From Candidatus Omnitrophota bacterium (GTDB taxonomy: Bacteria; Omnitrophota; Gorgyraeia; Zapsychrales; JANLHA01): DNA of 64,000 nucleotides. A program made the translations under genes and the position numbers. This document shows, piece by piece, positions 11,167 through 45,995 of the stretch. Location of the stretch: the NCBI GenBank assembly GCA_022711395.1, contig JAKLFA010000002.1, positions 3,864 through 67,863 of the forward strand. The letters are read 5' to 3'. A model generated the notes under the pieces. It was given only the letters and a program-made list of their open reading frames with translations, was not told the DNA's origin and searched no databases. Within the stretch, counting starts at the first letter, position 1; the number at the start of each line of letters is the position of its first letter.

Positions 11167-11202
11167 CAGAGGAAAATAGTTTTTAAGGTTTGCGCGCCTT
11201 GT

Positions 11203-12931: not shown

Positions 12932-12946
12932 TGGCACGTGTCTTGC
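12932..12946 (+). promoter_or_regulatory. sigma-54 (-24/-12) promoter TGGCAC-N5-TTGC
   Basis: TGGCACgtgtcTTGCT at 12932-12947, about 95 nt upstream of the HTH gene (13039) that heads the EPS export operon. rpoN is encoded divergently immediately upstream. Confidence 0.6.
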
Positions 12947-13038
12947 TTTCACTACCTTACATGCTTGAGTGCGGGCAGCATTTTAAACAGCGAAGCAATT
13001 TCATTCAGGCTTGACACTCAGAATAAGGAGGAAGGCGA

Positions 13039-13230
13039 ATGTCTTCAAAGCAGCGAATGACCATTACGGAAGTGGCTGACATTATCGGGGTCACGACCAA
13101 AACGCTGGCGCGTTGGGAAAAGACCGGCAAGATCCGCAAAGCGAAAAGGGATTGGCGCGGGTGGAGGGTTTACAACTCGGAAGAGGTCAACGCGATCCAG
13201 CAATTCCACGAAACGTTGTTTGAAATCTGA
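13039..13230 (+). CDS. small helix-turn-helix DNA-binding protein (MerR/excisionase-type HTH)
   Basis: RBS AAGGAGGA; MTITEVADIIGVTTKTLARWEKTGKI is a MerR-superfamily HTH. Confidence 0.65.
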   Translation: MSSKQRMTITEVADIIGVTTKTLARWEKTGKIRKAKRDWRGWRVYNSEEVNAIQQFHETLFEI

Positions 13231-13245
13231 ACTAAGGGAGTTTTT

Positions 13246-14301
13246 ATGAAGACCCAAACAATATTTCCGACGGTAAGATCGGTGCGGGCGGCGCGGGGGG
13301 CAGGAGTGGAGCGGGCGGCAGAAAGAATAGGGGTTGCGCGGAGAGGAGAGTTTGCGCTGGCGGCGTTGGCGCTGCGAATCGTGCGGGCGGCACTGGCCGC
13401 GGGTGTCTTTCTGATTTTCGTTCAGCCGTTGCACGCGCAGAACTTCGCCAACTGGACGCCGGAGCAGGCGGTCCAGTCAGAACAGGCCCAGCCGGCTTTG
13501 AAAACGGGACTGGATTCCAGTGCGGAGCCGCTTAAAGACGCCCAGGGCGCGCCTTCTTTGAAAGAGCAGCCGCAAATTCCTGCCGCGGCGACCTTCAGCG
13601 AAGAGGACTTAAAAGGCTTGAGCCCCGAAGAACTGCAGGCCTTGATGGGCACCGGCCTGATCCCTCAGCCCCAGGCGCTCCCGGCCGCGGAGGCCAGCGG
13701 CTACACGCTTGGCCCGACGGACGTCATTACGATCACTGTCATGCGGCATCCGGAAGTGAGCGGCGAATACCCGATCAATAATGAAGGAAAGATCCAGTAT
13801 GAATTCGTGGGGGACATCCTCGTCAGCGGCCTTAACAAGGAAGAGGCCGAAGAGGTGATCTCCAGACACCTGTCCGAATATATTGTCTCGCCAGAGGTCA
13901 CGGTCAAGATCGCCCAGTATAACAGCAAGATCGTCTATGTCGTCGGTGAGGTGGCCGCTCCGGGCAAGATCTTCATGCGCGGGGACACCATCACCGTTCG
14001 CGAGGCGCTGATGCAGGCGGGGCTGCCGCGTTTAGGCGGCATCACGAAAAAGAGCCACTTGATCACCCCCTCCGACAGCGGAAAGCCCAAGAAAAAATAT
14101 ATCGATGTCTACGCCCTTTTGTATCAAGGCGACCTGCGGGAGAACGACACCATGTATCCGGGGGACGTGCTGTATATCCCCCCGACCTTCCTGACCAAGG
14201 TCATGAGGACGATCTCGCCGGTGGCCGCTCCGATCGGGCAGGCCGCGGGGGCCACAACGGGCGTCAATGTCATCAGCAACCCGACGAGGACGGGATATTA
14301 A
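13246..14301 (+). CDS. polysaccharide export protein (Wza/GumB-type, PEP-CTERM-locus-associated)
   Basis: Poly_export domain (LGPTDVITITVMRHPEVSGEYPINNEGKIQYEFVGDILVSG) plus an SLBB-like region. Positioned first in the EPS gene block. Confidence 0.85.
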   Translation: MKTQTIFPTVRSVRAARGAGVERAAERIGVARRGEFALAALALRIVRAALAAGVFLIFVQPLHAQNFANWTPEQAVQSEQAQPALKTGLDSSAEPLKDAQGAPSLKEQPQIPAAATFSEEDLKGLSPEELQALMGTGLIPQPQALPAAEASGYTLGPTDVITITVMRHPEVSGEYPINNEGKIQYEFVGDILVSGLNKEEAEEVISRHLSEYIVSPEVTVKIAQYNSKIVYVVGEVAAPGKIFMRGDTITVREALMQAGLPRLGGITKKSHLITPSDSGKPKKKYIDVYALLYQGDLRENDTMYPGDVLYIPPTFLTKVMRTISPVAAPIGQAAGATTGVNVISNPTRTGY

Positions 14302-14310
14302 TAAAGAGAA

Positions 14311-14540
14311 GACACAGGACACATGACACACGACACACGAAAACCTTAAAAACAGAAAAAAGACACAGGACACATGACACATGACACACGACACACGAAA
14401 ACCTTAAAAACAGAAAAAAGACACAGGACACATGACACATGACACAGGACACACGAAAACCTTAAAAACAGAAAAAAGACACAGGACACATGACACATGA
14501 CACAGGACACAGGACACAGGACACATGACACATGACACAT
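14311..14540 (+). repeat. higher-order tandem array: 4 units of ~58 bp, each (GACACAN)x4-5 + AAAACCTTAAAAACAGAAAAAA (family A)
   Basis: Direct reading of the sequence. An inverted partner TTTTAAGATTTTCGTGTGTCATGTGTCTTT lies at 14683-14711. No unique spacers, so not CRISPR. Confidence 0.9.
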
Positions 14541-14727
14541 GGGAAAACAGAAACAAAAACCGGGGATTAATACGCGTCTGAGGTGAGAGGACGCTTAAAA
14601 TAGCATGAAGCAGGATTTGGCAGTTCGTTCCTTATAATTTTAATGATTTTGATTTGTATTTTTTCGTATGCTTTGTTTTTATTTTAAGATTTTCGTGTGT
14701 CATGTGTCTTTAATTTGAGGAACCCAA

Positions 14728-15546
14728 ATGTATCTCAATTTTTATGGCTTTAAAGAGGTCCCGTTCAATCTGACGCCCAACGCGCATTTCTTTTTTGAAA
14801 GCGACAAGCACACGGAAGCGCTCTCGGTGCTTCTCTACGCCGTCAATCAGCGCAAAGGCTTTGTGGTCATGACCGGCGAGATCGGTTCCGGCAAGACGAC
14901 CGTCTGCCGCACGCTTTTAAACCATCTGGACACCTCGGTCGAAAGCGCCCTGATCACCAATACCCATATCAGCGGCAAGGACCTTCTGGCCACGATCCTG
15001 GAGGACCTGGGCGTTGAGTATCAACCCGGGTCCAAGGCGCGCCTTTTGAGCCAGCTCAATCACTACTTGATCTGCAAGCTCAAAGAGGACAAGAACGTGG
15101 TCCTGATCATTGATGAGGCCCAGAACCTGACCCCGTCGGTCTTGGAAGAGATCCGCATGCTTTCGAACCTCGAGACCGAGCAGGAAAAGCTGATCCAGAT
15201 CATCATCCTCGGCCAGCCTGAACTGCGTAAAAAGCTCGCCCTGCCGCGGCTGGAACAGCTGCGCCAGCGCATCGCGGTCTATTATCATCTGGACCCGCTG
15301 ACCACGGAGGAGGCGCTCAACTATATCCGCCACCGCCTGCGCGTGGCCAGTGATTCGGACAACCCGTATTTTTCTGACGAGGCGCTCAAGCTGATCGTTG
15401 AATTTTCCAAAGGCGTGCCGCGTTTGATCAACCAGCTCTGCGACAGCGCGCTTCTGATCGGCTACGTGCGGGACAAACGTTTGATCGACGAGGAGATCAT
15501 GAGGGAAGTCATCGCCGATTCTCCGATGGTGAGGATCGCGGCGTAA
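14728..15546 (+). CDS. ExeA-like AAA ATPase (PEP-CTERM-locus putative secretion ATPase)
   Basis: Walker A GEIGSGKTT. ExeA/GspA-like architecture; positioned next to the chain-length determinant as in described PEP-CTERM loci. Confidence 0.85.
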   Translation: MYLNFYGFKEVPFNLTPNAHFFFESDKHTEALSVLLYAVNQRKGFVVMTGEIGSGKTTVCRTLLNHLDTSVESALITNTHISGKDLLATILEDLGVEYQPGSKARLLSQLNHYLICKLKEDKNVVLIIDEAQNLTPSVLEEIRMLSNLETEQEKLIQIIILGQPELRKKLALPRLEQLRQRIAVYYHLDPLTTEEALNYIRHRLRVASDSDNPYFSDEALKLIVEFSKGVPRLINQLCDSALLIGYVRDKRLIDEEIMREVIADSPMVRIAA

Positions 15547-15557
15547 ATTGAATACAA

Positions 15558-15706
15558 GGCACTAAGGCACTAGGACACTACGGCACTGCGAACGTGAAAG
15601 AGAGAAAAGTAAAAACCTCAAGGACAAAAGTGAAGATGAAAAAGATTTTTATTTTACCGGGTTTAAGGTTTTTAGTGTCTTAGTGTCATAGTGCCCTAGT
15701 GTCTCG
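15558..15706 (+). repeat. family-B palindromic element (GGCACTAA/GACACTAC octamer arm ... inverted TAGTGTCTTAGTGTCATAGTGCC arm)
   Basis: Left arm at 15558-15600 including AACGTGAAAG; right arm at 15660-15706 preceded by GGTTTAAGGTTTTT. Followed by TTTTTTTAAGAAAGGAAcgatATG of the next gene. Confidence 0.85.
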
Positions 15707-15730
15707 ATATTTTTTTAAGAAAGGAACGAT

Positions 15731-17002
15731 ATGCCCGAAACAACCGACAGCAACGTCCAGGTCCTCAATTATGTGCGCATGTTCCTGCGGCGCAAAGAAT
15801 TTTTGATCGTCGGTGCCATCTTGGGGCTGGCGTTAGGTCTGTGCGCCGGCAATGTCATGCCGCCGCAATACCGCTCCTCGACCGTCATCCTGGTCGAAGA
15901 GGGCAAGAGCGATAACCCGCTCTTTGACAAGCTCGCGGTCTCGACCACCGTCCAGGACCGGCTCTCCAATATCAAGGAATCCATGCTCGGCTGGTATAGC
16001 ATGGTGGAGCTCGTCAAACGCCTCAACCTGCACGCCGACATCCGCAGCGCCCAGGAATTCGAAAGCCTGGTCCTGGGGATCCGCGACCGGATCTCGATCA
16101 TGCTCAAAGGCCATAACGTGCTGTATTTATCCTACGTCGGAAAAGACCCGCGCGAGACCCAGGCGGTCGTTGAGAACATCACCGACATCTTCATCACGCG
16201 CAACAAGGAGATCCAGAACCGGGAGACGGAGGACGCCATCAAGTTCATCGAAGAACAGCTGAAAGTTTATAAGGGGAAGATCAAGTCCGCCGAGATCGCC
16301 GAACTTCAGGACAAGCTGGACGAGCTTTTGATCGACTCGACCGACAAACACCCCCTGGTCAAACAGCTCAGGGAGCGCATCGACCTTAAGATGAAAGAGC
16401 TTGAAAAAGAAAAACTGGAGTTCACCAAGGCCGATGACCTGGTCAAGGAATCCAACAAAAAGATCATCGAGAACATCCAGAAGGCCTTGAGCAACATTGA
16501 GGGCGAAGTCGCCAAAGACGAGAACAAGGACCTCTATAAGTTCGTGCTCGCCGACAAGATCGGGGACGTGGTCGCGCGTGACGCCGAGGTCAATGAAAGC
16601 ATCTATAACGTCCTTCTGCAGCGTTTGGAGACCGCCAAGATCACCCAGAGCCTGCAGACCTCCAAGGAGGGGACGCGCTACACGATCGTCGACCCGCCGC
16701 GGGTGCCGCTGGCGCCGTTTAAGCCGAACAAGGGGATGCTCGCCGGAGGGGCGGCGGCCGCGGGGTTATTGCTGGGCGCGGGGATCGTCTTTCTGATGGA
16801 GTTTTTTGACAAGTCGTTCATTGATGTGGAAGACGCCAAGGAGTTCTTCGGGACGCCGCTCTTGGGCGCGATCTCGCGCATCACCACCAAGGAGGAGATC
16901 TCTTACCAGAAGGAATTTGTGCGGTGGGTGTATGTGGTGGCGATCATCGCGTCAGTGGTCATTGTCCTGTCGTCGATGACGGTGGGGAATTTGCTAAAAT
17001 AA
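15731..17002 (+). CDS. polysaccharide chain-length determinant protein (Wzz/GumC-like)
   Basis: N-terminal TM helix, long coiled-coil periplasmic region, C-terminal TM helix (GAGIVFLMEFFD). Confidence 0.8.
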   Translation: MPETTDSNVQVLNYVRMFLRRKEFLIVGAILGLALGLCAGNVMPPQYRSSTVILVEEGKSDNPLFDKLAVSTTVQDRLSNIKESMLGWYSMVELVKRLNLHADIRSAQEFESLVLGIRDRISIMLKGHNVLYLSYVGKDPRETQAVVENITDIFITRNKEIQNRETEDAIKFIEEQLKVYKGKIKSAEIAELQDKLDELLIDSTDKHPLVKQLRERIDLKMKELEKEKLEFTKADDLVKESNKKIIENIQKALSNIEGEVAKDENKDLYKFVLADKIGDVVARDAEVNESIYNVLLQRLETAKITQSLQTSKEGTRYTIVDPPRVPLAPFKPNKGMLAGGAAAAGLLLGAGIVFLMEFFDKSFIDVEDAKEFFGTPLLGAISRITTKEEISYQKEFVRWVYVVAIIASVVIVLSSMTVGNLLK

Positions 17003-17018
17003 GGCACTGGGGGAAAAT

Positions 17019-17645
17019 ATGAGCGAAATGTTCCAAAAATACAAGCATGTTGACACCATGAAAAAGGCCCAGGACGAGAAGGCCGCGCAGCAAAAGAAAA
17101 AGGACGGGGAGAGCGTGATCCACGCGGCAGTGGCCGGAGGCCTTCCCCAGGCGCCCGACGCGCCTTTAAAGCCGGCGGGGCGTTCGCGCGCGCTGGTGAT
17201 CGTCGCGCTGGTTTTGGCGGTGGCGGCATTCGGGCTCTCGTTTAAGTTGGCGCTGGACATGGCCAGGGCCCAGAGCGACATCAATGAGGTCCAGGTCGTG
17301 ATCGATGACCGTTCGGAAGAGGCCGGCAGCTGGATGGAGCACACCTCCGCCGTGGAGGACGAATTCCGCCGGGCTTTCAAAAAGGACCGTGAGCGGATGG
17401 ACGCGCTTGAAAAGGCCGATCAAAGCGCCGTCGAGGCTTTGGCCGCCCTTAAGGATGCTGCGCGCGCCTCTGACATCGAAAAGCTTTCCAAAGAACTGAA
17501 GGACCAGAAGGACGGCGTCCTCCGGCTGCAGCAGCGGATCGACAATCTGGTGGCGGAAAACAAAAAGCTGGCGGACCAGCTGGAAGCGATGAGGCCGGCT
17601 GAACCGGGTAAAAAAGTGGATGTGAGGATATTGGAGAATAAATAG
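17019..17645 (+). CDS. hypothetical coiled-coil protein with one TM helix
   Basis: TM helix ALVIVALVLAVAAFGLSF followed by a charged coiled-coil region. Located between the chain-length-determinant and kinase genes. Confidence 0.4.
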   Translation: MSEMFQKYKHVDTMKKAQDEKAAQQKKKDGESVIHAAVAGGLPQAPDAPLKPAGRSRALVIVALVLAVAAFGLSFKLALDMARAQSDINEVQVVIDDRSEEAGSWMEHTSAVEDEFRRAFKKDRERMDALEKADQSAVEALAALKDAARASDIEKLSKELKDQKDGVLRLQQRIDNLVAENKKLADQLEAMRPAEPGKKVDVRILENK

Positions 17646-17697
17646 GACACCAGGCACCAGACACACGACACAAGGGGTCCCATGTGTCCTGTGTCGG
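17645..17697 (+). repeat. family-A mini-palindrome (GACACCAGGCACCAGACACACGACACAAGG / CATGTGTCCTGTGTCGG)
   Basis: Inverted heptamer arms around the loop GGTCC, sitting between a stop and the next RBS. Confidence 0.7.
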
Positions 17698-17714
17698 TTA
17701 ACAAAGGAAATCAA

Positions 17715-18503
17715 ATGGGTAAGATCACCGACGCATTAAAGAAGGCCGCTGAGGAACGTGTCGGCCATATTGAAAAGCTCAACCGCGTGCGCGCCACGCG
17801 TTTGTTCGTGGCCCAGCGCACCATGGAGTCGCAGATCGACCCCCGGGTCGTCGCCTTTTTTGACCCCAAGGCCGCCATCAGCGAGCAGTACAAGATCCTG
17901 CGGACCAATATTTTGGCCTTGAACAAAGGCAATCCGCCCCGGACCCTGGTCGTGACCAGTTCCACGCAAGGGGAGGGAAAGACCATCACCTGCCTGAACC
18001 TGGCGGTGGCGATGGTGCATTCCAACCGCAAGACCCGGGTGCTTTTGATCGACGCGGATATGCGCCGCGGCCGCACGGCCGAATACCTGGGCGTCAAAGC
18101 GGAGGTGGGGCTTTCGGAAGTCCTCAAGGGCGAGGCGGAACTTGAGCAGGCGCTGTATCACGTGGAGGCGATCGAGAACCTGACCGTCCTTTCGTCGGGC
18201 GCGGTCCCGGACCACCCGGTGGAGCTTGTGGATTCGACCGCTATGCGCGACCTTTTGAAGACCGCCGCCACCCAGTTCGATATGGTGATCATCGACACGC
18301 CCCCGATCATTTCGGTCACCGACGCCGGCATTGTCGGCTCGATCGCCGACGGGGTCCTCATGGTCGTGCGCGCCGGCAAGACCCAGCGGGGCCTGGTCAA
18401 CCGGGCGGAAGAACTTCTATATCAGTCGCACGCCAAAGTGCTGGGACGGGTCCTGACCAACATCGAATACCATGTGCCGGAGTATATATATAGGTACTTA
18501 TAA
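17715..18503 (+). CDS. CpsD/CapB-type P-loop ATPase (EPS tyrosine autokinase family)
   Basis: Walker A TSSTQGEGKTIT, Walker A' LLIDADMRRG, Walker B VIIDTPP. ATG 17715 after RBS AAAGGAAA; the longer ORF start lies inside a repeat. Confidence 0.85.
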   Translation: MGKITDALKKAAEERVGHIEKLNRVRATRLFVAQRTMESQIDPRVVAFFDPKAAISEQYKILRTNILALNKGNPPRTLVVTSSTQGEGKTITCLNLAVAMVHSNRKTRVLLIDADMRRGRTAEYLGVKAEVGLSEVLKGEAELEQALYHVEAIENLTVLSSGAVPDHPVELVDSTAMRDLLKTAATQFDMVIIDTPPIISVTDAGIVGSIADGVLMVVRAGKTQRGLVNRAEELLYQSHAKVLGRVLTNIEYHVPEYIYRYL

Positions 18504-18820
18504 CGGCACTAAGGCACCAAGTCACTAAGGCACCAAGTCACTAAGGCACTAAGGCACTAAGGCACTATGACACTAAAAAATCAGGCACTAAGACACTACG
18601 ACACTCAGGCACTAGCAACATCTAGTGGCACGATGTTTTGGTTTAGGGTTTTAGTGTCACAGTGTCTTAGTGTCACAGTGTCTTGTTTTAAGGTTTTAGT
18701 GTCACAGTGTCTTAGTGTCACAGTGTCTTGTTTTAAGGTTTTAGTGTCATAGTGCCGTAGTGTCATGGTGTCTTGGTTTAAGGTTTATAGTGTCTCAGTG
18801 TCCTAGTGTCTTAGTGTCTA
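18504..18820 (+). repeat. large family-B palindromic element with a 4 x ~46-bp higher-order array
   Basis: Left arm: tandem octamers GGCACTAA/GGCACCAA/GTCACTAA up to ~18612. Loop contains TGGCACGATG. Right arm: four units [TGTTTTAAGGTTTT + AGTGTCACAGTGTCTTAGTGTCACAGTGTCT]. Confidence 0.9.
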
Positions 18821-18826
18821 TTAATT

Positions 18827-19543
18827 ATGCCCAATAAAACATCCATTAAGAGCAAGCGTCATCAGCCTCCGGGCTTTGAGATCCTGTATGAAGACCGGGA
18901 CGTCATCGTCGGCAGCAAGGAGTTCAATGTTTTGACCGTGAAGGCCAAATGGAACCGTGAGCAGACCGTCCACGCGGCCTTGAACCGCTATGTGCGCAAG
19001 GGCAACTCCCGCTCGCACAAATGCGTTTTTGTCGTCCACCGGCTGGACCAGCACACCTCGGGTGTCCTGATCTTCGCCAAGAGCCCGCAGGCCCAGGAAT
19101 TTTTGAAGGGCGACTGGAAAAATACCGAAAAGACCTATTACGCCGTGGTGCACGGCCGGCTGGCCGAAAAGAAAGGGACGTTCTCAAGTTATCTGGCGGA
19201 AGACGAGGATTATGTGGTCGCCTCCGTCCAGGACCCAAAAAAGGGGAAGCTCGCCCGGACCGCCTATGAAGTGGCCAGGGAAGCGAACAATCTTTCGATG
19301 GTGAAGATCCGTCTATTGACCGGCCGCAAGAACCAGATCCGCGTGCACTTCGCTGAAGCCGGCCATCCGGTCGTGGGGGACGCCAAATACGGCCGAAAGA
19401 GCAGCCATAAGCGACTGGCGCTGCACGCTCAGTCGATCAGCTTCACGCATCCGTTCAGCAAAGAGCGGATCACCGTCGAGTCGCCGCTGCCGCAGTATAT
19501 GGAGAATTTGTTAGCGAAAGAAACCAGGACGCCAAGGCGCTAA
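18827..19543 (+). CDS. RluA-family pseudouridine synthase
   Basis: VVHRLDQHTSGVLIFAKS catalytic motif. Confidence 0.85.
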   Translation: MPNKTSIKSKRHQPPGFEILYEDRDVIVGSKEFNVLTVKAKWNREQTVHAALNRYVRKGNSRSHKCVFVVHRLDQHTSGVLIFAKSPQAQEFLKGDWKNTEKTYYAVVHGRLAEKKGTFSSYLAEDEDYVVASVQDPKKGKLARTAYEVAREANNLSMVKIRLLTGRKNQIRVHFAEAGHPVVGDAKYGRKSSHKRLALHAQSISFTHPFSKERITVESPLPQYMENLLAKETRTPRR

Positions 19544-19573
19544 GGCGCGATCGTGCCTTGAAGAAAGGTTTTT

Positions 19574-20548
19574 ATGTCCACCTATCTTGTAACAGGCTGC
19601 GCGGGGTTCATCGGCGCCAAAACGGCCGAAATGCTCCTTCAAAAAGGGCACACGGTCATAGGCGTTGATAATCTTAATGACTATTACGATGTCCGCCTCA
19701 AAGAACACCGTTTAGGTTTACTCCGTGCTCCAGGTTCATTCACCTTCCATAAAATGGACATCGAAGACGAGGCTGCGGTGGGGCGCCTGTTCAAGAAATA
19801 CGCCTTTGACGCGGTCATTAACCTGGCGGCCCGGGCCGGCGCGCGCTACAGCATCGAGAATCCCTATATCTACAGCACCACCAATATCCATGCCGCGTTG
19901 AACCTTTTGGAAGCTTGCCGGAATTTTAAGGTCAAAAAATTTGTCCTGGCCTCATCGTCCTCGTTATACGCCGGCCAGAAAATGCCTTTTAAGGAAACAT
20001 TGCCGGTCAACGAACCGATCTCTCCTTACGCGGCCAGCAAAAAGGCCGCCGAGGTCATGGCCTACACCTATCATTATCTTTACGGGACCGACATAAGCAT
20101 TTTACGTTATTTCACCGTTTACGGCCCGGCGGGCCGGCCGGACATGAGCCCGTTCCGTTTCACGCGCTGGATCGTCGAAGGGGAGGCCATTCAGCTTTTT
20201 GGCGACGGGGAGCAGTCGCGGGATTTTACCTATGTGGATGATATCGCATCCGGCACCATCAAGGCCTTAAAAAGGGTCGGCTTTGAGGTCATCAACCTCG
20301 GCGGCGGGAAAAAACCCGTGACCATCAACTCGATGATCGCGCTGATGGAAAAATACACCGGCAAACAGGCCAGGGTCAAGCATCTGCCCGCCCATAAGGC
20401 TGATGTGGATTCGACCTGGGCGGATATTTCCAAAGCTAAAAAGCTCCTGAATTGGGAGCCGAAGGTGGAATTTGAAGAAGGCATCCGGCGCACCGTCGAA
20501 TGGTATTTGGCGAATCGCGCCTGGGCGGGGAGCATTCAAAGCAAATAG
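19574..20548 (+). CDS. NAD-dependent epimerase/dehydratase (UDP-glucuronate 4-epimerase-like SDR)
   Basis: GCAGFIGAKTAEMLL Rossmann motif and YAASKKAAE (YxxxK). Confidence 0.8.
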   Translation: MSTYLVTGCAGFIGAKTAEMLLQKGHTVIGVDNLNDYYDVRLKEHRLGLLRAPGSFTFHKMDIEDEAAVGRLFKKYAFDAVINLAARAGARYSIENPYIYSTTNIHAALNLLEACRNFKVKKFVLASSSSLYAGQKMPFKETLPVNEPISPYAASKKAAEVMAYTYHYLYGTDISILRYFTVYGPAGRPDMSPFRFTRWIVEGEAIQLFGDGEQSRDFTYVDDIASGTIKALKRVGFEVINLGGGKKPVTINSMIALMEKYTGKQARVKHLPAHKADVDSTWADISKAKKLLNWEPKVEFEEGIRRTVEWYLANRAWAGSIQSK

Positions 20549-20550
20549 CG

Positions 20551-21750
20551 ATGAAAAAACTTCTGATCGTTGTTCAGCGATTTCCGGTCCTTTCCGAGAC
20601 CTTTATTGAAGACCACGTCCTTGGCTTCGCGCAAAGGAGCAGCTTTGATGTTTCGCTTCTGATCCTCGAGGGCGCGCTGCCGCCGGAGGATGTCCCGGAT
20701 CCGCTCAAAAGCCTGGCCAGGGTCTTTAGGGTCACGCGCCCCAAGACGGAGTTTAAAAAAACAGCGGCTCTTTTAAAAATCATTTTCCGTTTCTTTCATA
20801 AGTGGCCGCTCCTTTTAAAAGCGGTGTCGATCCCCGGCCCCGGGGCCTGGGAGCGGCTCTTTATCCTTGAGCATGTCTTAAGCGGCGGCTATGACCTGAT
20901 GCATTGCCATTTCGGCACGGCCGCCAACACGGTCCTGTTTTTAAAGGACCTGTTCCCGTCGATGAAACTGGTGGTGAGCTTTTTGGGGTATGATATCCAC
21001 AAATACCCGCATGAGCATGGCGCCGGTGTTTACGCGGGGCTGTTTTTACGGATGGACAGGGCGGTGGTGAACACGCGTTTTTCGAAAGACAAGCTCATCG
21101 CGCTGGGCTGCCCGCCGGAAAAGGTCTCGCTTATCCCGCTGGGGTTTGACCTGGCGCAGACGCCTTTTAAGGTCCGTCCGGCGCCGTCCGGCGGAAGGAT
21201 CAAGTTCGTCTGCGTGGGCCGCCTGGTCGAAAAAAAAGGCCACAGCGATCTTTTAAAGGCCTTTGACCAGGTCCTTGATCAATACCCCTTTGCCGAGCTC
21301 CATCTGGTGGGCGACGGGCCGCTGGCGAAAGACCTGGAAAGCGAGGCGCGGCAGCTGGGGGTCCTGGACGCGGTCTTTTTTTACGGGGCGCTTTCCAGAA
21401 AAAAGGCCCACCGGATCTGTGATGAATGCCATATCTTTGTGATCGCCTGCCGCACGGCCGCTGATCAGAACATGGAAGGCCAGTGCCTGGTTTTGCAGGA
21501 GGCGCAGGCGATGGGGCTGCCGGTCATCTCAACGCGGCACAACGGGATCCCCGAGGGTGTTTTAGACGGGGAGAGCGGTTTTCTGGTCGCGGAACGGGAC
21601 GTGTCGGCGCTTGCCAGCAAGATGTGCTATCTGGCCGGCCATCCGAAGCTTTGGCCGGACATGGGCGAAAAAGGGCGCCGGTTCGTGGAGTCCAAATACA
21701 AGCTTTCGGACATGCTCACGGCGCTGGAGAAGATGGCCTATGAGGCGTAA
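20551..21750 (+). CDS. glycosyltransferase family 4
   Basis: GT-B fold with EX7E region QEAQAMGLPVISTRHNGIPEGVLDGESGFLV. ATG at 20551 immediately after the upstream stop. Confidence 0.8.
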   Translation: MKKLLIVVQRFPVLSETFIEDHVLGFAQRSSFDVSLLILEGALPPEDVPDPLKSLARVFRVTRPKTEFKKTAALLKIIFRFFHKWPLLLKAVSIPGPGAWERLFILEHVLSGGYDLMHCHFGTAANTVLFLKDLFPSMKLVVSFLGYDIHKYPHEHGAGVYAGLFLRMDRAVVNTRFSKDKLIALGCPPEKVSLIPLGFDLAQTPFKVRPAPSGGRIKFVCVGRLVEKKGHSDLLKAFDQVLDQYPFAELHLVGDGPLAKDLESEARQLGVLDAVFFYGALSRKKAHRICDECHIFVIACRTAADQNMEGQCLVLQEAQAMGLPVISTRHNGIPEGVLDGESGFLVAERDVSALASKMCYLAGHPKLWPDMGEKGRRFVESKYKLSDMLTALEKMAYEA

Positions 21751-21760
21751 GGAGAAAAAG

Positions 21761-22588
21761 ATGCCCGGTTTCTGCTGCCTGCTTGTTCTCACAGGCTTTC
21801 TTGCGGCGGGGCCGGCCTTCGCGCAAGGCCCGGCGGAGGGTCCGGCATCGCAGATCAGCGCGCGCATCGAGAGGCTTCAAGCGCGATATCAGATATCATT
21901 TAAATACGCGGATTTTCCGAAGATGCCGGATATCTTGAAATTCAAAGAGATCTCTGCCGCTGAAGAGGGGCAGAGGGGACTGTCCCCTTTGGGTTTCGGC
22001 GAATACAGGCTTTTGGATGAATATCTGGCGCTCTTTGAGGAAGAGATCAGCAAATACCCGGCCGGGTTCTTTAAGGACCAGGATGTGCGCGGCATCGGGT
22101 TTGTGCGGGCGCTGTTTTTTAAGGGCAAGTCCGCCCAGGGTCTTTATAACCACGGCGCGCGCGTGATGTTCTTTGATATTTCGCGGTTTCGCCGCAACAA
22201 GGCCCAGCAAAGGCACAGCATCCATCATGAGATCTTTCATATGATGATGGAGAAAAAAGGCTACCCGCTTTTTTATGAACAGTGGGCGGCTTTGAACACG
22301 CCCGGTTTTGTTTACGGAAAACAGAGCAAGCCCTTAACAGAGGTGAATCCCTACAATACCACGGCCCCGAACCAGCTGGGGTTTGTCTCCTATTACGCCA
22401 TGGAATCTGCGGCCGAAGACCAGGCCGAGGTCTTCGCCTGCCTGATGCAGGAGAAACACCGTAAGATCATTGAAGGCTGGGCGCTTAAAGATGAGGCCAT
22501 GGCCAAAAAGGTCCAGATGATCAAGGACTTCGCCCAATACTACCATCCGGAAATGGGGGAGAAATACTGGAGGACGGATAACAGATAG
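21761..22588 (+). CDS. secreted hypothetical protein with HExxH-like motif
   Basis: RBS AAGGAG; signal peptide MPGFCCLLVLTGFLAAGPAFA; IHHEIFHM motif. The C-terminal codons overlap a family-C repeat. Confidence 0.4.
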   Translation: MPGFCCLLVLTGFLAAGPAFAQGPAEGPASQISARIERLQARYQISFKYADFPKMPDILKFKEISAAEEGQRGLSPLGFGEYRLLDEYLALFEEEISKYPAGFFKDQDVRGIGFVRALFFKGKSAQGLYNHGARVMFFDISRFRRNKAQQRHSIHHEIFHMMMEKKGYPLFYEQWAALNTPGFVYGKQSKPLTEVNPYNTTAPNQLGFVSYYAMESAAEDQAEVFACLMQEKHRKIIEGWALKDEAMAKKVQMIKDFAQYYHPEMGEKYWRTDNR

Positions 22589-22672
22589 CGCGACCGGAGG
22601 GAGTCCTGAACGTAGTGAAGGAGAGAGCGGACAACCGAGAACGGAGAGCGGATCATGGATTTTAAGGTTTTA
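22569..22672 (+). repeat. family-C element (GGAGRACGG / GGACGGATAA heptamers + GGATTTTAAGGTTTT core)
   Basis: Direct reading of the sequence. Overlaps the stop of the upstream gene and marks the left edge of the AbiE/nuclease island. Confidence 0.7.
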
Positions 22673-22749
22673 GTAGCTTGTTTTTCAATAAAAATGTGGT
22701 ATGCTATTTCTGTATAAAAGTTATACGTTAGTACCTTAATATATTACTT

Positions 22750-23550
22750 ATGGCAAATAAAAATACAATAAGTGCTTTAAGTCAAAAAGAGGCCGAAATT
22801 GCCGCCCGCCTGTCCTATGAAAAAAAGGATATCGTAACGGCACAGGAATTGGACTCATTTTTGCCCGATGATTTTCAGTACCGGAAACAGCTGGTTTATG
22901 ATCTGAAAAAGAAGGGAATGTTGCGCCCCATTAAAAGGGGTGTTTATATCTTTGTCCCCCTGGAGTCTCTGGCGACTGGGCGCCGTGTCAGCGAGTTTTT
23001 GGTCCCGCCTGTTTTTTTCCCGGAGGATAATTACTATATCGGGTATTCCACGATGTTTAATTATTATCATTTCACGGAGCAGCAGTTTCAGGCCGTGTAT
23101 GTTTTGAATACCACCCGCTGCATGGAACGTGTCATTGCCGGAGTCACGTTCAAATTTGTCAAAACGCCGTTGAACCGGTTTTATGGACTGGAAAAGATCA
23201 GGATCAAGGACAAGGATGTCGTTGTGAGTTCTAAGGAAAGGACACTGGTTGATCTCGTGTATTTTAACCGTCCGGTCGGAGGGATCCGATCCGCGGCTGA
23301 AATTTTAAAGCGTTTTGTTGTTGAAAAAAAATGCGACATCAAAAAGCTGATCGAATGTGCCCTCCGGTTTCCGGGGATCAAGACCCGAAAGATCATTGGA
23401 TTGAGCCTTGAGCAGGCGGGCGTTTCCGAAAGGCTGCTGAAGCCCCTTGAGCGGACCATCGAGGATAGCGCTGTGATCTCATTGTCTGAATCCCGCCGGG
23501 GAACGATCAACGCGAAATGGAAAGTCATTATTCATGCTCCACAGGGATAA
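22750..23550 (+). CDS. AbiEi-family antitoxin/transcriptional regulator-like protein (type IV TA)
   Basis: N-terminal wHTH with MLRPIKRGVYIF signature. Immediately upstream of, and overlapping, an AbiEii gene. Confidence 0.6.
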   Translation: MANKNTISALSQKEAEIAARLSYEKKDIVTAQELDSFLPDDFQYRKQLVYDLKKKGMLRPIKRGVYIFVPLESLATGRRVSEFLVPPVFFPEDNYYIGYSTMFNYYHFTEQQFQAVYVLNTTRCMERVIAGVTFKFVKTPLNRFYGLEKIRIKDKDVVVSSKERTLVDLVYFNRPVGGIRSAAEILKRFVVEKKCDIKKLIECALRFPGIKTRKIIGLSLEQAGVSERLLKPLERTIEDSAVISLSESRRGTINAKWKVIIHAPQG

Positions 23551-24433
23551 AGAAGCATTTGCTGAATTGATCGATCGTGCCGCCTCAGCGGCAGGGTTTT
23601 ATGCGCTTTTGATGGAAAAGGATTATTATTTGACGCTGATCCTTTCAAGGGTCCATGAGCTTTCAGACGATCTGGTGTTTAAAGGAGGGACGTGCCTCAA
23701 TAAGATCTACTATTCGTATTACCGGTTAAGCGAGGACCTGGATTTCAGCATGGTGCTGCCTCAGTATGAGGCCACGCGCACCCAGCGCCGTCAGTGCATA
23801 GGGCCGGTCAAAGACAAGATCGAGTCATTCGCTCAAAGTTTTGATATGCGGATCGAAGGGGCGGATCAAGCCGGGCGCAACGAATCCAGGCAATATGTTT
23901 ATTATTTTGTGTATGATTCGGCGCTGATCCCTTCCCGGCAGATGATCAAGGTTGAGATCGGCTTGAGATTTAACCCGATCCTTCCGGCTGAAGTGGGGGA
24001 AGTGAAGCATAAATTTTTGCACCCGTTTACCGGGGAGCCGCTGTTTGACGGCGGAACGGTCCGCTCTCTGTCTCTTAAGGAGGCTGTGAGCGAAAAGCTC
24101 AGGGCCGCGGCCTTGAGGGAGCCGATCGCGCCGAGGGATTTTTATGATCTGGATTTTGTGATACGGCAGGGCTTTGATCTGGGGGACCCGCAAGTGTTAA
24201 AACTGTTTGCCGCGAAGGTCAAAGAGGACGGGGGCGATCCTGATCCGGAAAAGTACCGGCTCAATCTCGGCCGCCCGGAGCGGGAGATCCATGACATGCG
24301 CTCGCGCATTGAGAATGAGCTGTTTGATGTTTTAACGGCCGGCGAAAGGAAAAATTTTGACCTGGACGCCGCGCTTAAGAGGATCAATCTTGCGATGGAT
24401 GACGGAGAACGGAGAACGGAGAATGGAGAATAG
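23534..24433 (+). CDS. AbiEii/AbiGii-family nucleotidyltransferase toxin
   Basis: LVFKGGTCLNKIYYSYYRLSEDLDFS motif (DUF1814). Confidence 0.8.
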   Translation: MLHRDKEAFAELIDRAASAAGFYALLMEKDYYLTLILSRVHELSDDLVFKGGTCLNKIYYSYYRLSEDLDFSMVLPQYEATRTQRRQCIGPVKDKIESFAQSFDMRIEGADQAGRNESRQYVYYFVYDSALIPSRQMIKVEIGLRFNPILPAEVGEVKHKFLHPFTGEPLFDGGTVRSLSLKEAVSEKLRAAALREPIAPRDFYDLDFVIRQGFDLGDPQVLKLFAAKVKEDGGDPDPEKYRLNLGRPEREIHDMRSRIENELFDVLTAGERKNFDLDAALKRINLAMDDGERRTENGE

Positions 24434-24552
24434 AGGACGGATAATTGATAACGGATAGCGGAGAGAAGATACAAGGAGAACGGGAAACAGAGAACAGATA
24501 ACGGATTTTAAGGTTTTGATTTTTCCGCTTTCCGTCATCTGTTCTCTATCAT
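24401..24552 (+). repeat. family-C palindromic element
   Basis: GGAGAACGGAGAACGGAGAATGGAGAATAG ... GGATTTTAAGGTTTTGATTTTTCCGCTTTCCGTCATCTGTTCTCTATC. The first part encodes the C-terminus ...DDGERRTENGE* of the AbiEii protein. Confidence 0.85.
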
Positions 24553-24620
24553 AAAAGTGTACGTCACCGCTATCGTCAGCAAATATTGCATTAATTTATC
24601 AAATATGTTAAACTATCGTT

Positions 24621-25259
24621 ATGAAATATGAAGAATTCGTTAAATATGTGCGTGATTTGCCGGTTATTGAATCAGAGCTCTTTATTGCCACTGAGCCAAA
24701 TCCTGATGCGCTTAAGGTTCAGTTTAGCCGGTGGGTTGCTACGGGTAAACTGATCCAATTGCGGCGCGGTGTCTATGTGCTGCCTGCGCATTATTGTGAT
24801 AAGCCGGGCAATGCGTTTTATGCGGCCAATATTTTGAAAAAGCCATCCTATATCAGTCTCGAAAAGGCATTGGAATTTTATGGTCTGATTCCGGAGGCGG
24901 TCAGGGTTTTTACATCCGTGACGAGCAAACGGGCGGGGCATTTTGAAAATGATCTCGGAGAATTTGATTACCGGCATATTCATCCGGATTTGTTTTGGGG
25001 ATATCAGCCGGTGAAGCTGGAAGGTCAGAATGTTCTGATGGCGCGTCCCGAAAAGGCTGTTCTGGATTTGATGTACCTTAACGCGGTGGATGTTTCTTCG
25101 GAATTTTTTGACGGATTACGTCTGCAGAATATCGAAAGCCTGAACGCTGCGCAGCTGGCTGATGATGCCAGGCGTTTTGGTAAGTCGGTGATGGTCAAAC
25201 GGGCGAATGTGCTGGCCGAATATCTTAAAGGCCTCCAGCAGGGAGAAAGGCGTTTATGA
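24621..25259 (+). CDS. AbiEi-family antitoxin-like protein (second copy)
   Basis: LIQLRRGVYVLP signature; overlaps the downstream AbiEii gene. Confidence 0.65.
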   Translation: MKYEEFVKYVRDLPVIESELFIATEPNPDALKVQFSRWVATGKLIQLRRGVYVLPAHYCDKPGNAFYAANILKKPSYISLEKALEFYGLIPEAVRVFTSVTSKRAGHFENDLGEFDYRHIHPDLFWGYQPVKLEGQNVLMARPEKAVLDLMYLNAVDVSSEFFDGLRLQNIESLNAAQLADDARRFGKSVMVKRANVLAEYLKGLQQGERRL

Positions 25260-26059
25260 AGGATTATGCTGTTTCATTAGCTGTTTCGCAACAAGGCATG
25301 GATCAAAAGCGCAATATTCTACGTGAATATATCCAATCGTATGCGTTGTCCTTGCTGCAAAAGAGCGGGGTTTTTCAGGCATGGGCGTTTGTCGGAGGGA
25401 CAGCATTGAGATTTTTGTATGATCTTCCGCGTTTCTCAGAGGACCTGGATTTTTCGTTGGAGAAGCCCTTTGAGAAGGATTTTGAGGATGTCCTTAAGTT
25501 TTTAAAAGACGAATTAAACGCTGCAGGATACAACGTGGAGGTGTCTTGCCGCGTTCAGAAAACGGTTCAATCAGCGATGGTGAGGTTTTCCGGTTTGCTT
25601 TACGAAACGGGGATCTCACCGTTGAAAGATCAAAAAATGTCGATTAAGATCGAGATCGATACCCATCCTCCTGACGGCGCCGCTTGTGTCACAAAGCTGA
25701 TCAACCGCTATATGCCGATCTCATTTTTATCTTATGATATTCCATCGTTGTTTTCCGGAAAAATTCATGCCCTGTTAAGCCGTCCGTATACAAAGGGAAG
25801 GGATTTTTATGATGTGTGTTGGTATGTTTCAAAATTCAAGGATTTGACGCCTAATATGATTTTTCTGTGTAATGCTTTGAAACAGACAGGGTGGGAAAGG
25901 GATCTTCCAACAGCGCGGGATTGGAAGAATTATGTTGCGGATGCTGTTGAACAGGTGGATTGGGCGGTTATTTCTAAAGATGTCACGCCTTTTTTGGAAC
26001 GTTCCGGGGATATGGATGTCTTTACAAAAGAACAGATTTTGATAATGCTGAAGGGGTAA
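25256..26059 (+). CDS. AbiEii-family nucleotidyltransferase toxin (second copy)
   Basis: FVGGTALRFLYDLPRFSEDLDFS motif. Confidence 0.8.
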   Translation: MKDYAVSLAVSQQGMDQKRNILREYIQSYALSLLQKSGVFQAWAFVGGTALRFLYDLPRFSEDLDFSLEKPFEKDFEDVLKFLKDELNAAGYNVEVSCRVQKTVQSAMVRFSGLLYETGISPLKDQKMSIKIEIDTHPPDGAACVTKLINRYMPISFLSYDIPSLFSGKIHALLSRPYTKGRDFYDVCWYVSKFKDLTPNMIFLCNALKQTGWERDLPTARDWKNYVADAVEQVDWAVISKDVTPFLERSGDMDVFTKEQILIMLKG

Positions 26060-26112
26060 GTGTTAGCCGAAATCAACCTCCGAGGTTAGGATGGCAGGAA
26101 TGCAAATCATGA

Positions 26113-26153
26113 AGAGCGGATTTTAAGGTTTTGATTTTTCCGTAATCCGTACT
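26113..26153 (+). repeat. family-C mini element (AGAGCGGATTTTAAGGTTTTGATTTTTCCGTAATCCG)
   Basis: Shares the GATTTTAAGGTTTTGATTTTTCCG core with 24500-24530. Confidence 0.7.
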
Positions 26154-26170
26154 CCTATATTAAGGGCCAA

Positions 26171-27073
26171 ATGGACAAACGCCTTAAAAACATCATTTCC
26201 CGTTTGGAGATCTTTGAGACTGAGATCAAGGACAACGATATCCGTCTCAAAAAACTCCAGTACGCCTGGGAGATCGGCCGCGACGCCTGTCAGTACAAGA
26301 AGGAGACCGGCACGCCGATCAATGAGATCGGCCGCGAATGCGGGATCATGGAATCGACCATGCAGAGGTTTGTGAGGTTTTATCAGTTCTATCCTAAAGG
26401 GTATAAAGAGTCGATCAGCGGAAAGCCTTTGATGTGGGGACACTATATGGCGGTCATGTATGTGCGCGATCAAAAGGAACGGGACTGGTATCTTAAGGAA
26501 GCGGCCCTCAATGAATGGAGCACGCATGAGATACGCCGCCGGGTGCGCAACAATTTTTACGAAAGCGCGGCCGAGGCCTCGCAGGCATCTTCATCCGTCA
26601 ATGGGCAGACGCTTTCGGCAGTGGAGCAGCAGCTCTATACCTACGCGGCGAAGGTCTTAAAGGTCGTGGACGGCGATACGCTCAACGTGGAAGTGGATGT
26701 TGGCTTCTCGATGCGGTATGAGACCAAGCTTCGCCTGCGCGGCATCAACTGCGCGGAGCGCGGAACCAAGAAGGGCGAAGCTGCCAAGAAGTTCGTTGAA
26801 GACGAACTTCTTGGCAAGACACTAAGTCACTATGACACTGAGTCACTAAGCAGTGCCTCGGATTCTAGTGGTTTGGAAGTTCAGTGTCCTAGTGCCTTAG
26901 TGTCTCAGTGTCCAGGTATTGTAATAAGATCGTACAAAAGTGAAAAGTACGGCCGCTTTCTCGCTGATGTTTGGTATCTGAAAGGCGAGACAAACAGCGA
27001 GGCCATCTTAAAAAATGGAAAGCTGTTAAATCAGGTTCTTTTAGATAAGGGTTATGCTCAAAAGGTGGAGTGA
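26171..27073 (+). CDS. DUF1016_N (YhcG-like N-terminal domain) fused to staphylococcal-nuclease-like (SNase/thermonuclease) domain; carries an in-frame repeat insertion
   Basis: N-terminal YAWEIGRD...WGHYMAVMYV...WYLKEAALNEWSTHEIRRRV pattern. SNase motifs LKVVDGDTLNVEV, LRLRGINCAE and EKYGRFLADVWY. Insertion at ~26817-26916 encodes LSHYDTESLSSASDSSGLEVQCPSALVSQCPG. Confidence 0.6.
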   Translation: MDKRLKNIISRLEIFETEIKDNDIRLKKLQYAWEIGRDACQYKKETGTPINEIGRECGIMESTMQRFVRFYQFYPKGYKESISGKPLMWGHYMAVMYVRDQKERDWYLKEAALNEWSTHEIRRRVRNNFYESAAEASQASSSVNGQTLSAVEQQLYTYAAKVLKVVDGDTLNVEVDVGFSMRYETKLRLRGINCAERGTKKGEAAKKFVEDELLGKTLSHYDTESLSSASDSSGLEVQCPSALVSQCPGIVIRSYKSEKYGRFLADVWYLKGETNSEAILKNGKLLNQVLLDKGYAQKVE

Positions 27074-27111
27074 GTATTTGTCGAAGTCCTGCGTAGCTAA
27101 ACACGATAAGT

Positions 27112-27216
27112 ATTTAGCGAAGCATGGAGCGAAACCGATCCGGAAGTGATTTTGAAGAAGGGGAAGATGCTTAATCAAGTTCTTTTAGATAAGGGTTATG
27201 CTCAAAAGGTGGAATG
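27112..27216 (+). pseudogene. duplicated 3' fragment of an SNase-type nuclease gene
   Basis: Encodes ...TDPEVILKKGKMLNQVLLDKGYAQKVE*. Its 3' half is near-identical to the end of the intact gene (27005-27073) and its 5' half is near-identical to the fragment at 30297-30390. Confidence 0.5.
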
Positions 27217-27354
27217 AGGGTTTGGTTTTTCTTTTTCCGTTGTCTGTATGATGTACGTCATGTTTATGTGCGTTTATTTGAATAATGTTGTGGAATGCCA
27301 GAGCAAAGATTAGTCCCAGTATTTCTATCTGGTTGATTAGATAAAGGAGCGCGA

Positions 27355-28356: not shown

Positions 28357-28444
28357 GTCCATATACCGTTTGGCTTATGATGATGTTTATTTTTTGTGGA
28401 TAAAGAAGTTGGATTGGGAATCATTCTAAATAGAAAGGGAAGCG

Positions 28445-45994: not shown

Positions 45995-45995
45995 C

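Follow-up and report, generated by a model that had tools for sequence, protein, structure and literature searches.

The 64,000-nucleotide (nt) stretch of Candidatus Omnitrophota bacterium analysed here (contig JAKLFA010000002.1 of assembly GCA_022711395.1, positions 3,864 to 67,863 of the forward strand; hereafter the window) contains many copies of a short sequence with an AAGG-type center between T-runs, TTTTAAGGTTTT, which we refer to as the core and which adjoins tandem arrays of 7- and 8-nt repeats that occur as inverted pairs. The interpretation that we prefer, and hold with about as much doubt as confidence, is that the core is the apex or junction module of mosaic fold-back repeats that are most likely selfish or near-neutral DNA. 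The element family is apparently undescribed, and its features combine those of known kinds of repeats.

The window is part of a metagenome-assembled contig, and the same proteins are encoded on the Joint Genome Institute (JGI) contig Ga0116241_10000030 and in several other digester assemblies. Nearly all of the genes in the window are on the plus strand, and a Pfam scan of the proteins showed that a polysaccharide/exosortase/PEP-CTERM locus is encoded. The loci used for comparison included three close relatives (L012, L013 and L017; the GalE protein of L012 is 87% identical to that of the window), two more distant Omnitrophota loci with the same exopolysaccharide (EPS) operon (L019 and L020; GalE 54 and 58% identical, respectively) and one WOR-3 locus, represented by three assemblies (L022-24), in which a PF05635 gene is present between feoA and feoB.

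The core adjoins arrays of several repeat families

The exact core was found 9 times in the window, relative to 0.05 expected from dinucleotide-preserving shuffles of the window, and 17 times when up to one mismatch was allowed, relative to 0.91 expected. It was found that 12 of these 17 matches directly adjoin a short-repeat array, though the arrays, as located by a simple array finder for periods of 7 or 8, account for 1736 of the 64,000 bases (2.7% of the window). These numbers bear out the proposal, made earlier in a sequence-only reading of this DNA, that a shared core lies next to the arrays, and the shuffles together with the adjacency count exclude the frequent AT-rich word that the same reading had named as the alternative.

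The sites named in that reading agreed with the DNA to differing degrees. Family A arrays are followed by AAAACCTTAAAAACAGAAAAAA, as proposed, and this was found three times, with the core on the minus strand at 14340, 14398 and 14456. For family B, the sequence TGTTTTAAGGTTTT is exact at 18684-18697 and 18729-18742 within the interval 18640-18790, with the variants GGTTTAGGGTTTT at 18641 and GGTTTAAGGTTTA at 18776; the copies at 60558 and 60603 read TGTTTTAGGTTTT, with one A fewer than had been written, and a double variant, TTTTAAGGGTTTAAGGTTTT, is present at 61445-61464. The family C 25-mer GGATTTTAAGGTTTTGATTTTTCCG is exact at 24503 and 26118, whereas at 22657 only GGATTTTAAGGTTTT is common. 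The upstream motif AACGTGAAA was confirmed at 10694, 15591, 50381 and 50389 and was also found at 12625 (5 matches, relative to 0.77 expected). The idea of a single element class with modular arms and a common core is supported: arrays of families A, B, C and E, and those of other families in relatives, have the same motif in front of them, and the locus L017 contains five cores in alternation with four arrays that belong to three families. The earlier reading overlooked that the arrays form inverted-pair hairpins, that the core is on one arm or in the apical loop, and that in-frame copies with a trimmed core are present in genes.

On the T/G-rich strand, the core has the consensus T3-6 A1-4 G2-4 T3-6 and is always immediately 5′ of the right (T/G-rich) arm, whatever the repeat family. 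The array 3′ of the core consists of TAGTGTC in family B, CGTGTGTC in family A (on the minus strand), GATTTTTCCG... in family C and, in the close relatives L012, L013 and L017, CCCTTTACGCTC in family E. The core itself amounts to approximately 1.5 to 2 units of a TTTAGGG/TTTTAAGG-type repeat, and its variants include TTTTGGTTTTGGGGTTTT (at 50418) and TTTTGTTTTT (at the orthologous site in L012); because the core is built of such repeat-like units and varies in this way, the T-runs are its most constant feature.

An exact core at 40235, inside a glycosyltransferase gene and with no array alongside, is probably a chance match, and one-mismatch cores are present away from arrays at 37735, 57335 and 12683. 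The last of these (12683-12694) is upstream of rpoN, and another array-free one-mismatch core (11181-11192) is in the 36-nt gap between a mannose-6-phosphate isomerase-like gene and rpoN, which are convergent.

The arrays are paired in predicted hairpins that occupy intercistronic gaps

The short repeats are arranged as inverted pairs, with a left arm of (GGCACTAA)n or (GACACAN)n and a right arm of (TTAGTGTC)n or (NTGTGTC)n. The left arm follows a stop codon and the right arm precedes the next ribosome-binding site, and so the pair fits tightly into the gap between two genes. At least six unit families were recognized, namely the heptamer families A (GACACNN), C (GGAGAAC), D (GGAAAAT) and E (AGCGTAA), the octamer family B (GGCACTAA) and an 11-mer family, with a modal array length of about 4 units. 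In every hairpin seen, in the window and in relatives, both arms are from the same repeat family. The family B elements are predicted by RNAfold to form long hairpins, with z values of -6.5 to -8.4 relative to shuffles.

The smallest elements (24470-24560 in the window, and 6153-6246 and 10753-10821 in L020) run directly from left arm to core to right arm, and in these the core forms the apical loop and is unpaired in the predicted minimum-energy fold. In larger elements, an A-rich linker (AACGTGAAA or AAAAAATCAG), a 47-nt nested repeat or a whole gene is located between the left arm and the core. The general grammar of an element, read 5′ to 3′ on the core strand, is a left arm of 7-8-nt units (usually about four per module), an A-rich linker with or without cargo, the core, and a right arm that is the inverse complement of the left.

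The intergenic elements of the window, on the plus strand unless stated otherwise, illustrate this arrangement. Just after the stop codon of an aminotransferase gene there is a degenerate left arm of GACGCTCAG units (10669-10690), followed by the AACGTGAAA linker (10694-10702), a T/G-rich tract (10721-10756) ending in the core variant TTTAAAGGTTTA (10745-10756), and a family B right arm with three TAGTGTC units (10757-10780). The family A block (14311-14541, minus strand) consists of three 58-nt units, each a heptamer array plus AAAACCTTAAAAACAGAAAAAA, and then a longer array, with cores at 14340-14351, 14398-14409 and 14456-14467; its partner arm (14682-14708, plus strand) contains the core variant TTTTAAGATTTT and CGTGTGTCATGTGTC. 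A family B left arm of four AAGGCACT units (15556-15587) is followed by the AACGTGAAA linker (15591-15599) and by the core variant GTTTAAGGTTTT with a right arm of four TTAGTGTC units (15661-15704).

Further along, a family B left arm of about 14 units interrupted by AAAAAATCAG (18505-18614) precedes four tandem modules of a core plus a four-unit right arm (18641-18819), which have a period of 45 nt and cores at 18641, 18686, 18731 and 18776. At 50350-50466, an element that spans a stop codon consists of a left arm (50350-50380), two AACGTGAAA linkers (50381-50397), the core variant TTTTGGTTTTGGGGTTTTT (50418-50436) and a right arm (50436-50466). The element at 61309-61497 has a perfect left arm of 14.5 GGCACTAA units (61309-61424), a double core (61445-61464) and a right arm (61464-61497).

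In family C, a left array of GAGAACG units and a core (22660-22671) occupy 22623-22671, upstream of an AbiE cassette; a hairpin at 24397-24546 is made up of a left array (24397-24505), an apical core (24506-24517) and the right arm TCCGCTTTCCGTCATCTGTTCTC (24524-24546); and a short copy (26118-26155) consists of GGATTTTAAGGTTTTGATTTTTCCG, with the core at 26121, and TAATCCGTACTCC.

Three AbiEi/AbiEii toxin-antitoxin cassettes are present within the polysaccharide locus (22750-26059 and 51883-53372), and family C arrays with the core bound each of the first two. In L017, modules of core and array come right after another AbiEii gene. It was also observed that the start of the pseudouridine synthase gene is 7 nt past the final right-arm unit of the tandem family B block (18819-18829). 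The gene has no recognizable ribosome-binding site (GTGTCTATTAATTATG) and may rely for its translation on coupling or on the hairpin that precedes it.

In-frame copies are present inside genes

At least 10 arrays or hairpins are in frame within open reading frames (ORFs), which are kept open. Hairpins are present in the genes for GalE, EpsH, a GT4 glycosyltransferase (twice in one gene), a GT2 glycosyltransferase, a GH123-like protein and a DUF1016 nuclease, and single arrays are present in two further GT4 genes. All of these are on the plus strand. The family B copies are the hairpin in the DUF1016/nuclease gene (26816-26912; peptide TLSHYDTESLS...VQCPSALVSQCP), the two in one GT4 gene (49591-49705 and 49815-49935), the one that forms a 69-codon insertion in GalE (57964-58175), in which the linker GATGGTTTG is a trimmed core, and the one in the exosortase gene EpsH (59296-59433). 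Family D (GGAAAAT and its inverse) contributes hairpins in the GH123-like gene (46289-46383) and in the GT2 gene (50575-50659), and a family A hairpin is at the 5′ end of the GH123-like ORF (45997-46134). One GT4 gene contains a single family A right-type array (40685-40713; peptide LCLVSCVLCL) and a single family C right-type array (40986-41009), and another GT4 gene contains three four-unit heptamer arrays (45352-45378, 45481-45507 and 45851-45879) that encode THDTGHRTQ-type peptides.

The GalE copy was compared with the PDB entry 6k0i, to which residues 4-255 and 325-400 of the window protein align, such that the 69-residue insertion falls between 6k0i residues 253 and 255. In an AlphaFold2 model the GalE fold is confident, and predicted local distance difference test (pLDDT) values below 50 are restricted to residues 261-322 and a few short loops. 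The same site in related Omnitrophota has insertions of other lengths and other repeat families, and none in P0004. The EpsH hairpin was found to be remodelled in another assembly (L027), which has one four-unit module on the other arm and an ORF that is still 306 codons long; a simple inversion of the loop was rejected as the source of this difference, because the orientation of the loop is kept and the module is on the other arm.

Family B coding copies use a single reading frame, giving peptides of the type LRHCDTKALKN ... SAIVSQC. Unit variants with TAT and TGT stand where TAA would be in frame, which results in a 24-nt super-period, and the core of coding copies is trimmed to GATGTT or GATGGTT. 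The open frames and the avoidance of stop codons suggest that the in-frame copies are translated. A profile of five inserted peptides, run against a protein collection, gave 49 candidates, none with E <= 1e-3, because the query is too short for a database of that size. When neighboring genes were used to look for allelic variants of the coding arrays at 45352-46134, no contig other than the source contig was returned.

The long GH123-like ORF begins inside the family A hairpin (46009-46140), and the JGI gene call starts after the hairpin (46132). The right arm at this 5′ end encodes a Cys/Leu/Val-rich stretch that ends in LLGC and looks like a lipoprotein signal.

PF05635 genes are located in hairpin loops

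In the window, a gene (60148-60507) for a PF05635 protein (23S rRNA intervening sequence, or IVS, protein; an Avd-like four-helix bundle) is between a six-unit family B left arm (60052-60097) and three modules of a T-rich linker plus a four-unit right arm (60513-60647), which have a period of 45 nt and core variants TTTTAGGTTTT at about 60558-60559 and 60603-60604. Every PF05635 gene that was fetched, in Omnitrophota and in WOR-3, is likewise inside an array hairpin: L012 (4748-4918, a truncated copy), L013 (3645-4004), L019 (9443-9805), L020 (two, 7841-8212 and 9115-9477), L021 (6001-6354) and L022-24 (approximately 3001-3354). The arms around these genes belong to the host genome's own repeat family, in the order left arm, gene, core (where present) and right arm, and the genes, which are inserted between operon genes, share a conserved leader of the form ATCCCC...AATCCCC...GGAGG. 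Hairpins occupy most gaps in these loci in any case, and the association may therefore be trivial; alternatively, PF05635 cassettes may target hairpin loops.

A related arrangement has been described in the Coxiella 23S rRNA IVS, where variable tandem heptamers are beside an S23p/PF05635 ORF (PMC4990558). The elements at 60052-60647 and in L012, L013, L019 and L020-24 resemble an IVS in having a stem of inverted termini with a PF05635 ORF in the loop. Unlike an IVS, they are located between or within protein-coding genes of an mRNA operon, with no rRNA in the window, their arms belong to a repeat family that the genome itself carries, and an ORF is missing from most copies of the elements.

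Copy number and repeat family change between relatives

The tandemly amplified unit is the core together with the right arm, which is 58 nt long in family A and 45 nt long in family B. Upstream of the AAA_22 gene, 1, 2, 3 or at least 4 of the 58-nt units are present among assemblies that encode identical flanking proteins; upstream of EpsI there are 3 of the 45-nt units in the window versus 2 in L027; and before the PF05635 gene there are 6 left-arm units in the window, 3.5 in L027 and 2 in L012, all of these being copy numbers read from assemblies, and short-read assemblers can collapse such repeats. The orthologous gaps of L012 contain fewer units, and in this relative one left arm is gone and a family C array is nested inside a family B array. 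The 47-nt nested repeat, a small repeat of double-hairpin form (CTGCGGAATTCGCAGAATTCC.CAG.ATTAGTCCCCGGAGGGATGTC), is present in frame in the apex of the window's GalE hairpin (58069-58115) and absent from the P0001 allele of GalE, and three copies of it are dispersed in intergenic positions of L012 (approximately 905-950, 1845-1890 and 5775-5820).

The more distant loci L019 and L020 have hairpins in most intercistronic gaps, built of other units (AGTCTCA; GCCCTAG and GGATGAA). In the 11.6 kb of L020, all three of the core-motif matches are at the loop or right-arm junction of hairpins from other repeat families. A search for the core in related genomes, as advised in the earlier reading, found it in L012, L013, L017 and L020, but L019 has only looser versions (TTAAAGGTTTT and AAAGGGTTT), with none under the strict motif, and the array hairpins of L021 and the WOR-3 locus have no core. 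Judging from these loci, the core has persisted through changes of array family in part of the clade and is not universal.

Wider pattern scans for the core plus two GTGTC units gave one match in a genome collection, a chance match with no arrays at the site, and five matches in a metagenome collection, of which only L017 is a real relative. Viral-contig scans for GGCACTAA arrays returned phage contigs that have neither hairpin nor core, in unrelated contexts. On the IMG/VR phage contigs L037, L038 and L040, plain tandem arrays of (CCTTTCATTG)n, (GGCACTAA)n and (GGGCAGAGTTA)n are adjacent to each other in one non-coding region; these arrays may be iteron-like, and they appear to be unrelated to the hairpin elements.

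Comparison with known repeat systems

No description of the array sequences or of Omnitrophota repeats was found in the searchable literature. The elements share one or two features with each of the nearest known systems and fail the defining features of all of them. Repetitive extragenic palindromes (REPs) are single imperfect palindromes of 20-40 nt tagged with GTAG or CGTC (PMC3733652). The elements resemble the REPs and bacterial interspersed mosaic elements (BIMEs) of enterobacteria and pseudomonads in being species-specific, highly repeated palindromic units that alternate in orientation between co-transcribed genes, in varying in unit number between strains, and in having a mosaic structure joined by conserved linkers, the linkers here being the core, AACGTGAAA and AAAAAATCAG between arrays. 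In contrast to REPs, the arms are tandem 7-8-nt arrays without a GTAG or CGTC tag at the arm ends that were read, and copies are also in frame within genes, whereas REPs are extragenic. Among the Pfam-scanned proteins of the window there is no REP-associated tyrosine transposase (RAYT; Y1 transposase).

The short tandemly repeated repetitive (STRR) sequences of cyanobacteria comprise several tandem heptamer families per genome, mostly of about 4 units and intergenic in operons, sometimes as inverted pairs able to form stem-loops and with small conserved repeats nested in the arrays. These features were reportedly set out by Mazel in 1990, Jackman and Mulligan in 1995 and Elhai in 2008. The window likewise has tandem heptamers in several, mainly intergenic, families, but the units (GACACNN, GGCACTAA, GGAGAAC, GGAAAAT and AGCGTAA) are not those of STRR1-3, octamers are present too, the host is of another phylum (Omnitrophota, with sigma-54), and a conserved T-run/AAGG/T-run junction and frequent in-frame copies in conserved enzymes set the elements apart. 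Heptamer 26-mers have been described in Nostoc and Xanthomonas (PMC4692102).

The in-frame copies are comparable to the Rickettsia palindromic elements (RPEs), palindromes of approximately 100-200 nt that are in frame in unrelated metabolic genes, translated and compatible with the protein fold (PMC10969869). Palindromic in-frame insertions are present here in GalE, EpsH, GT4, GT2 and the nuclease, but the RPEs are unique-sequence palindromes rather than 7-8-nt arrays, are restricted to Rickettsia and have no conserved apical core described; the likeness, which is based on a comparison of descriptions, is one of analogy and not of membership.

Other classes were considered and set aside. Relative to miniature inverted-repeat transposable elements, inverted arms are present, but there is no target-site duplication at the GalE site and no transposase in the window. 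Integron attC sites were rejected, as there is no GTTRRRY at the arm ends that were read and no integrase among the Pfam-scanned proteins of the window, and a CRISPR reading was also rejected. A sigma-54 promoter reading of the GGCAC units was rejected because the GG-GC spacing is 9 nt and not 12. In an Rfam scan of the window, only a tRNA-Lys reached the gathering score and no element was matched, and a relaxed scan of 10000-27500 gave only sub-threshold, miRNA-like hairpin noise.

Interpretation of the core

If the core is the apex or junction module of fold-back repeats, the T-runs on either side of each arm would be the sites at which slipped-strand or unequal recombination makes the elements grow and shrink, and concerted evolution would keep the arms complementary at the level of the family. 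Because the elements take up the space between cistrons, from the stop codon as far as the ribosome-binding site, they would be expected to fold as stem-loops in the polycistronic mRNA, in which the U-rich core would be a weakly paired apex or internal loop. Any effect on the host, such as mRNA punctuation, stability or translational coupling, would act at this mRNA stem-loop. The core may be conserved either as a site read by a trans-acting factor or as a hinge that nucleates the fold-back.

The strand from which a hairpin would be formed was evaluated by counting G.T and A.C mismatches in a strand-neutral stem alignment, in the orientation of the element. In the core-bearing intergenic copies of the window there were 54 G.T versus 29 A.C mismatches, which favors the core strand.

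Several observations weigh against the interpretation of the core as a fold-back module. The mismatch counts were 25 versus 25 in coding copies and 13 versus 17 in L019 and L020, and the minimum free energy favored the plus strand at 10665 and 50340 and the minus strand at 24470 and at 6153 of L020; as these tests of strand polarity were inconsistent, sense-strand RNA as the selected form was dropped. The test for compensatory change between arms that the earlier reading had proposed was negative for family B, where no element-specific signal was found: arms paired with their own partners at -39.4 kcal/mol versus -40.9 kcal/mol with the arms of other elements (permutation p 0.86), and so complementarity is a property of the family and not of each element. 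The alternating core and array modules of L017, which are followed by a promoter-like TTGACA-17-TAAACT site, have no left arm, and therefore a hairpin is not obligatory. The 14311-14708 element is inverted relative to its flanking genes. A comparison of filled (window and L013) and empty (L012) GalE sites showed no target-site duplication and the replacement of a few codons, and no transposase, reverse transcriptase, integrase or RAYT gene was found among the Pfam-scanned proteins of the window. The looseness of the core in L019 and its absence from L021 and WOR-3 count in the same direction.

A rival explanation, which we regard as doubtful, is that a trans-acting protein recognizes the core, in DNA or RNA that is double-stranded or in hairpin form; as this protein would read only the loop or junction, the stems could vary freely. 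Candidate readers would be a T-tract-bending nucleoid protein comparable to integration host factor (IHF), an enzyme responsible for propagating the elements, or the PF05635/Avd-like proteins whose genes are in some of the loops, and there is a precedent in the binding of IHF to the L motif of Escherichia coli BIMEs. Such a site would be consistent with the retention of the loop or junction while the arms change family, both within the genome and in the relative with a 58% identical GalE, with the fixed order of left arm, cargo, core and right arm, and with the presence of PF05635 genes inside array hairpins at every locus examined. It is less easily reconciled with a motif as loose as T-runs with 1-4 A and 2-4 G (exemplified by the orthologous L012 copy), with the PF05635 cassettes of WOR-3 and L021 that have arrays without the core, and with in-gene copies that persist although their core is trimmed to GATGGTT or GATGTT.

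It is unlikely that the core belongs to intrinsic terminators or attenuators and supplies their U-tracts with its T-runs; in that case the left arm and one right arm would form a hairpin followed by UUGUUUUAAGGUUUU, and tandem arm-plus-core modules would provide alternative terminator registers between cistrons. In tandem blocks, CTTG plus the core does follow every right arm but the last, T-runs often follow single right arms (T7 at 15709, TTGTTTTAAG at 61498 and TGTTTTTT at 10790) and are missing after in-gene hairpins, and a canonical terminator, with TTTTTTGTTTTT after it, is formed by the family C-like hairpin at 55350-55410. However, the core is invariably 5′ of the first right arm, in the loop and not 3′ of the stem, and where an arm is the last one ahead of a start codon, a T-run is often missing (18819). 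A consensus scan found 30 terminators relative to 22.8 expected and none at the elements, which the loop limit of 3-8 nt in the scan excludes. Termination in every gap of the EPS operon would also require a promoter in each gap, and none is evident.

Equally improbable, in our assessment, is a more specific proposal in which the core loop is read by trans-acting machinery that propagates the fold-back elements by way of single-stranded intermediates, with PF05635 as the candidate, perhaps together with a reverse transcriptase. If true, this would define a new class of mobile hairpin element and bring the 23S rRNA IVS, STRR-type heptamer arrays and RPE-like insertions under one mechanism.

There is a smaller chance that the arrays are contingency (phase-variation) repeats, in which the gain or loss of one unit shifts the reading frame of surface-polysaccharide genes or the regulatory spacing and the core is a passenger. 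Heptamer repeats are known as phase-variation and variable loci (PMC4692102, PMC12721329), a unit of 7 or 8 nt does not correspond to a whole number of codons, assemblies differ in array copy number, and in-gene arrays are present in glycosyltransferase, GalE and exosortase genes of the EPS locus. In contrast, the in-gene arrays are short (about 4 units) and imperfect, the codon-compatible 24-nt super-period and the edited stops argue for stable read-through rather than switching, the EpsH variant of L027 keeps exactly 306 codons, and no frameshifted allele was found. The inverted pairing and the conserved core would also be left unexplained.

That the core contributes to a promoter or UP-like element of the gene downstream is very improbable. 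The cores are 46-115 nt upstream of start codons, the last core of L017 adjoins its TTGACA-17-TAAACT site, and TTGTTT...TATGCT is 6 nt downstream of the core at 22660. Promoter-like hexamers are nevertheless at inconsistent distances from the core (approximately 60 nt at 24506), most cores are directly before an array and a ribosome-binding site with no hexamers, and three cores are on the strand opposite to the genes. A consensus promoter scan gave 19 sites relative to 13.2 expected, with none on the plus strand at a core. The last explanation, that the core is merely a frequent AT-rich word, could appeal to the array-free copies described above and is practically negligible in view of the shuffle counts, the adjacency to arrays and the same layout in relatives.

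The fold-back interpretation, and the distribution on which it is based, have several implications. If the elements are present genome-wide, they would constitute, in this Omnitrophota lineage, a dense, fast-evolving fold-back layer that shapes almost all of the gaps between cistrons in a conserved polysaccharide operon. Housekeeping enzymes gain tens of residues from the repeats without being broken, and Rickettsia, from which 'selfish DNA in protein-coding genes' is known, would thereby be joined by a second, independent example. No part other than the core is common to different repeat families and lineages, so a search for the factor or mechanism that maintains the elements would naturally begin there, and the link to PF05635 gives a lead, open to testing, on what the members of a very large protein family do. 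At a practical level, the repeats break short-read assemblies and mislead gene callers, such that starts are placed inside arrays and ORFs are extended or split.

Other features of the locus

The G+C content of the window decreases from approximately 0.52-0.57 to 0.35-0.43 over 27000-46000, where glycosyltransferase, flippase and O-antigen-type genes are located and arrays are sparser, which suggests that this region is a horizontally exchanged island inside the locus. A 91-nt segment is present three times (26985-27075, 27129-27219 and 30301-30391; 76-77% identity). It encodes the C terminus of a DUF1016/SNase-like protein (...LNQVLLDKGYAQKVE), and two of the three copies are orphan fragments. 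A fragment similar to this segment is present at approximately 18300 in L019.

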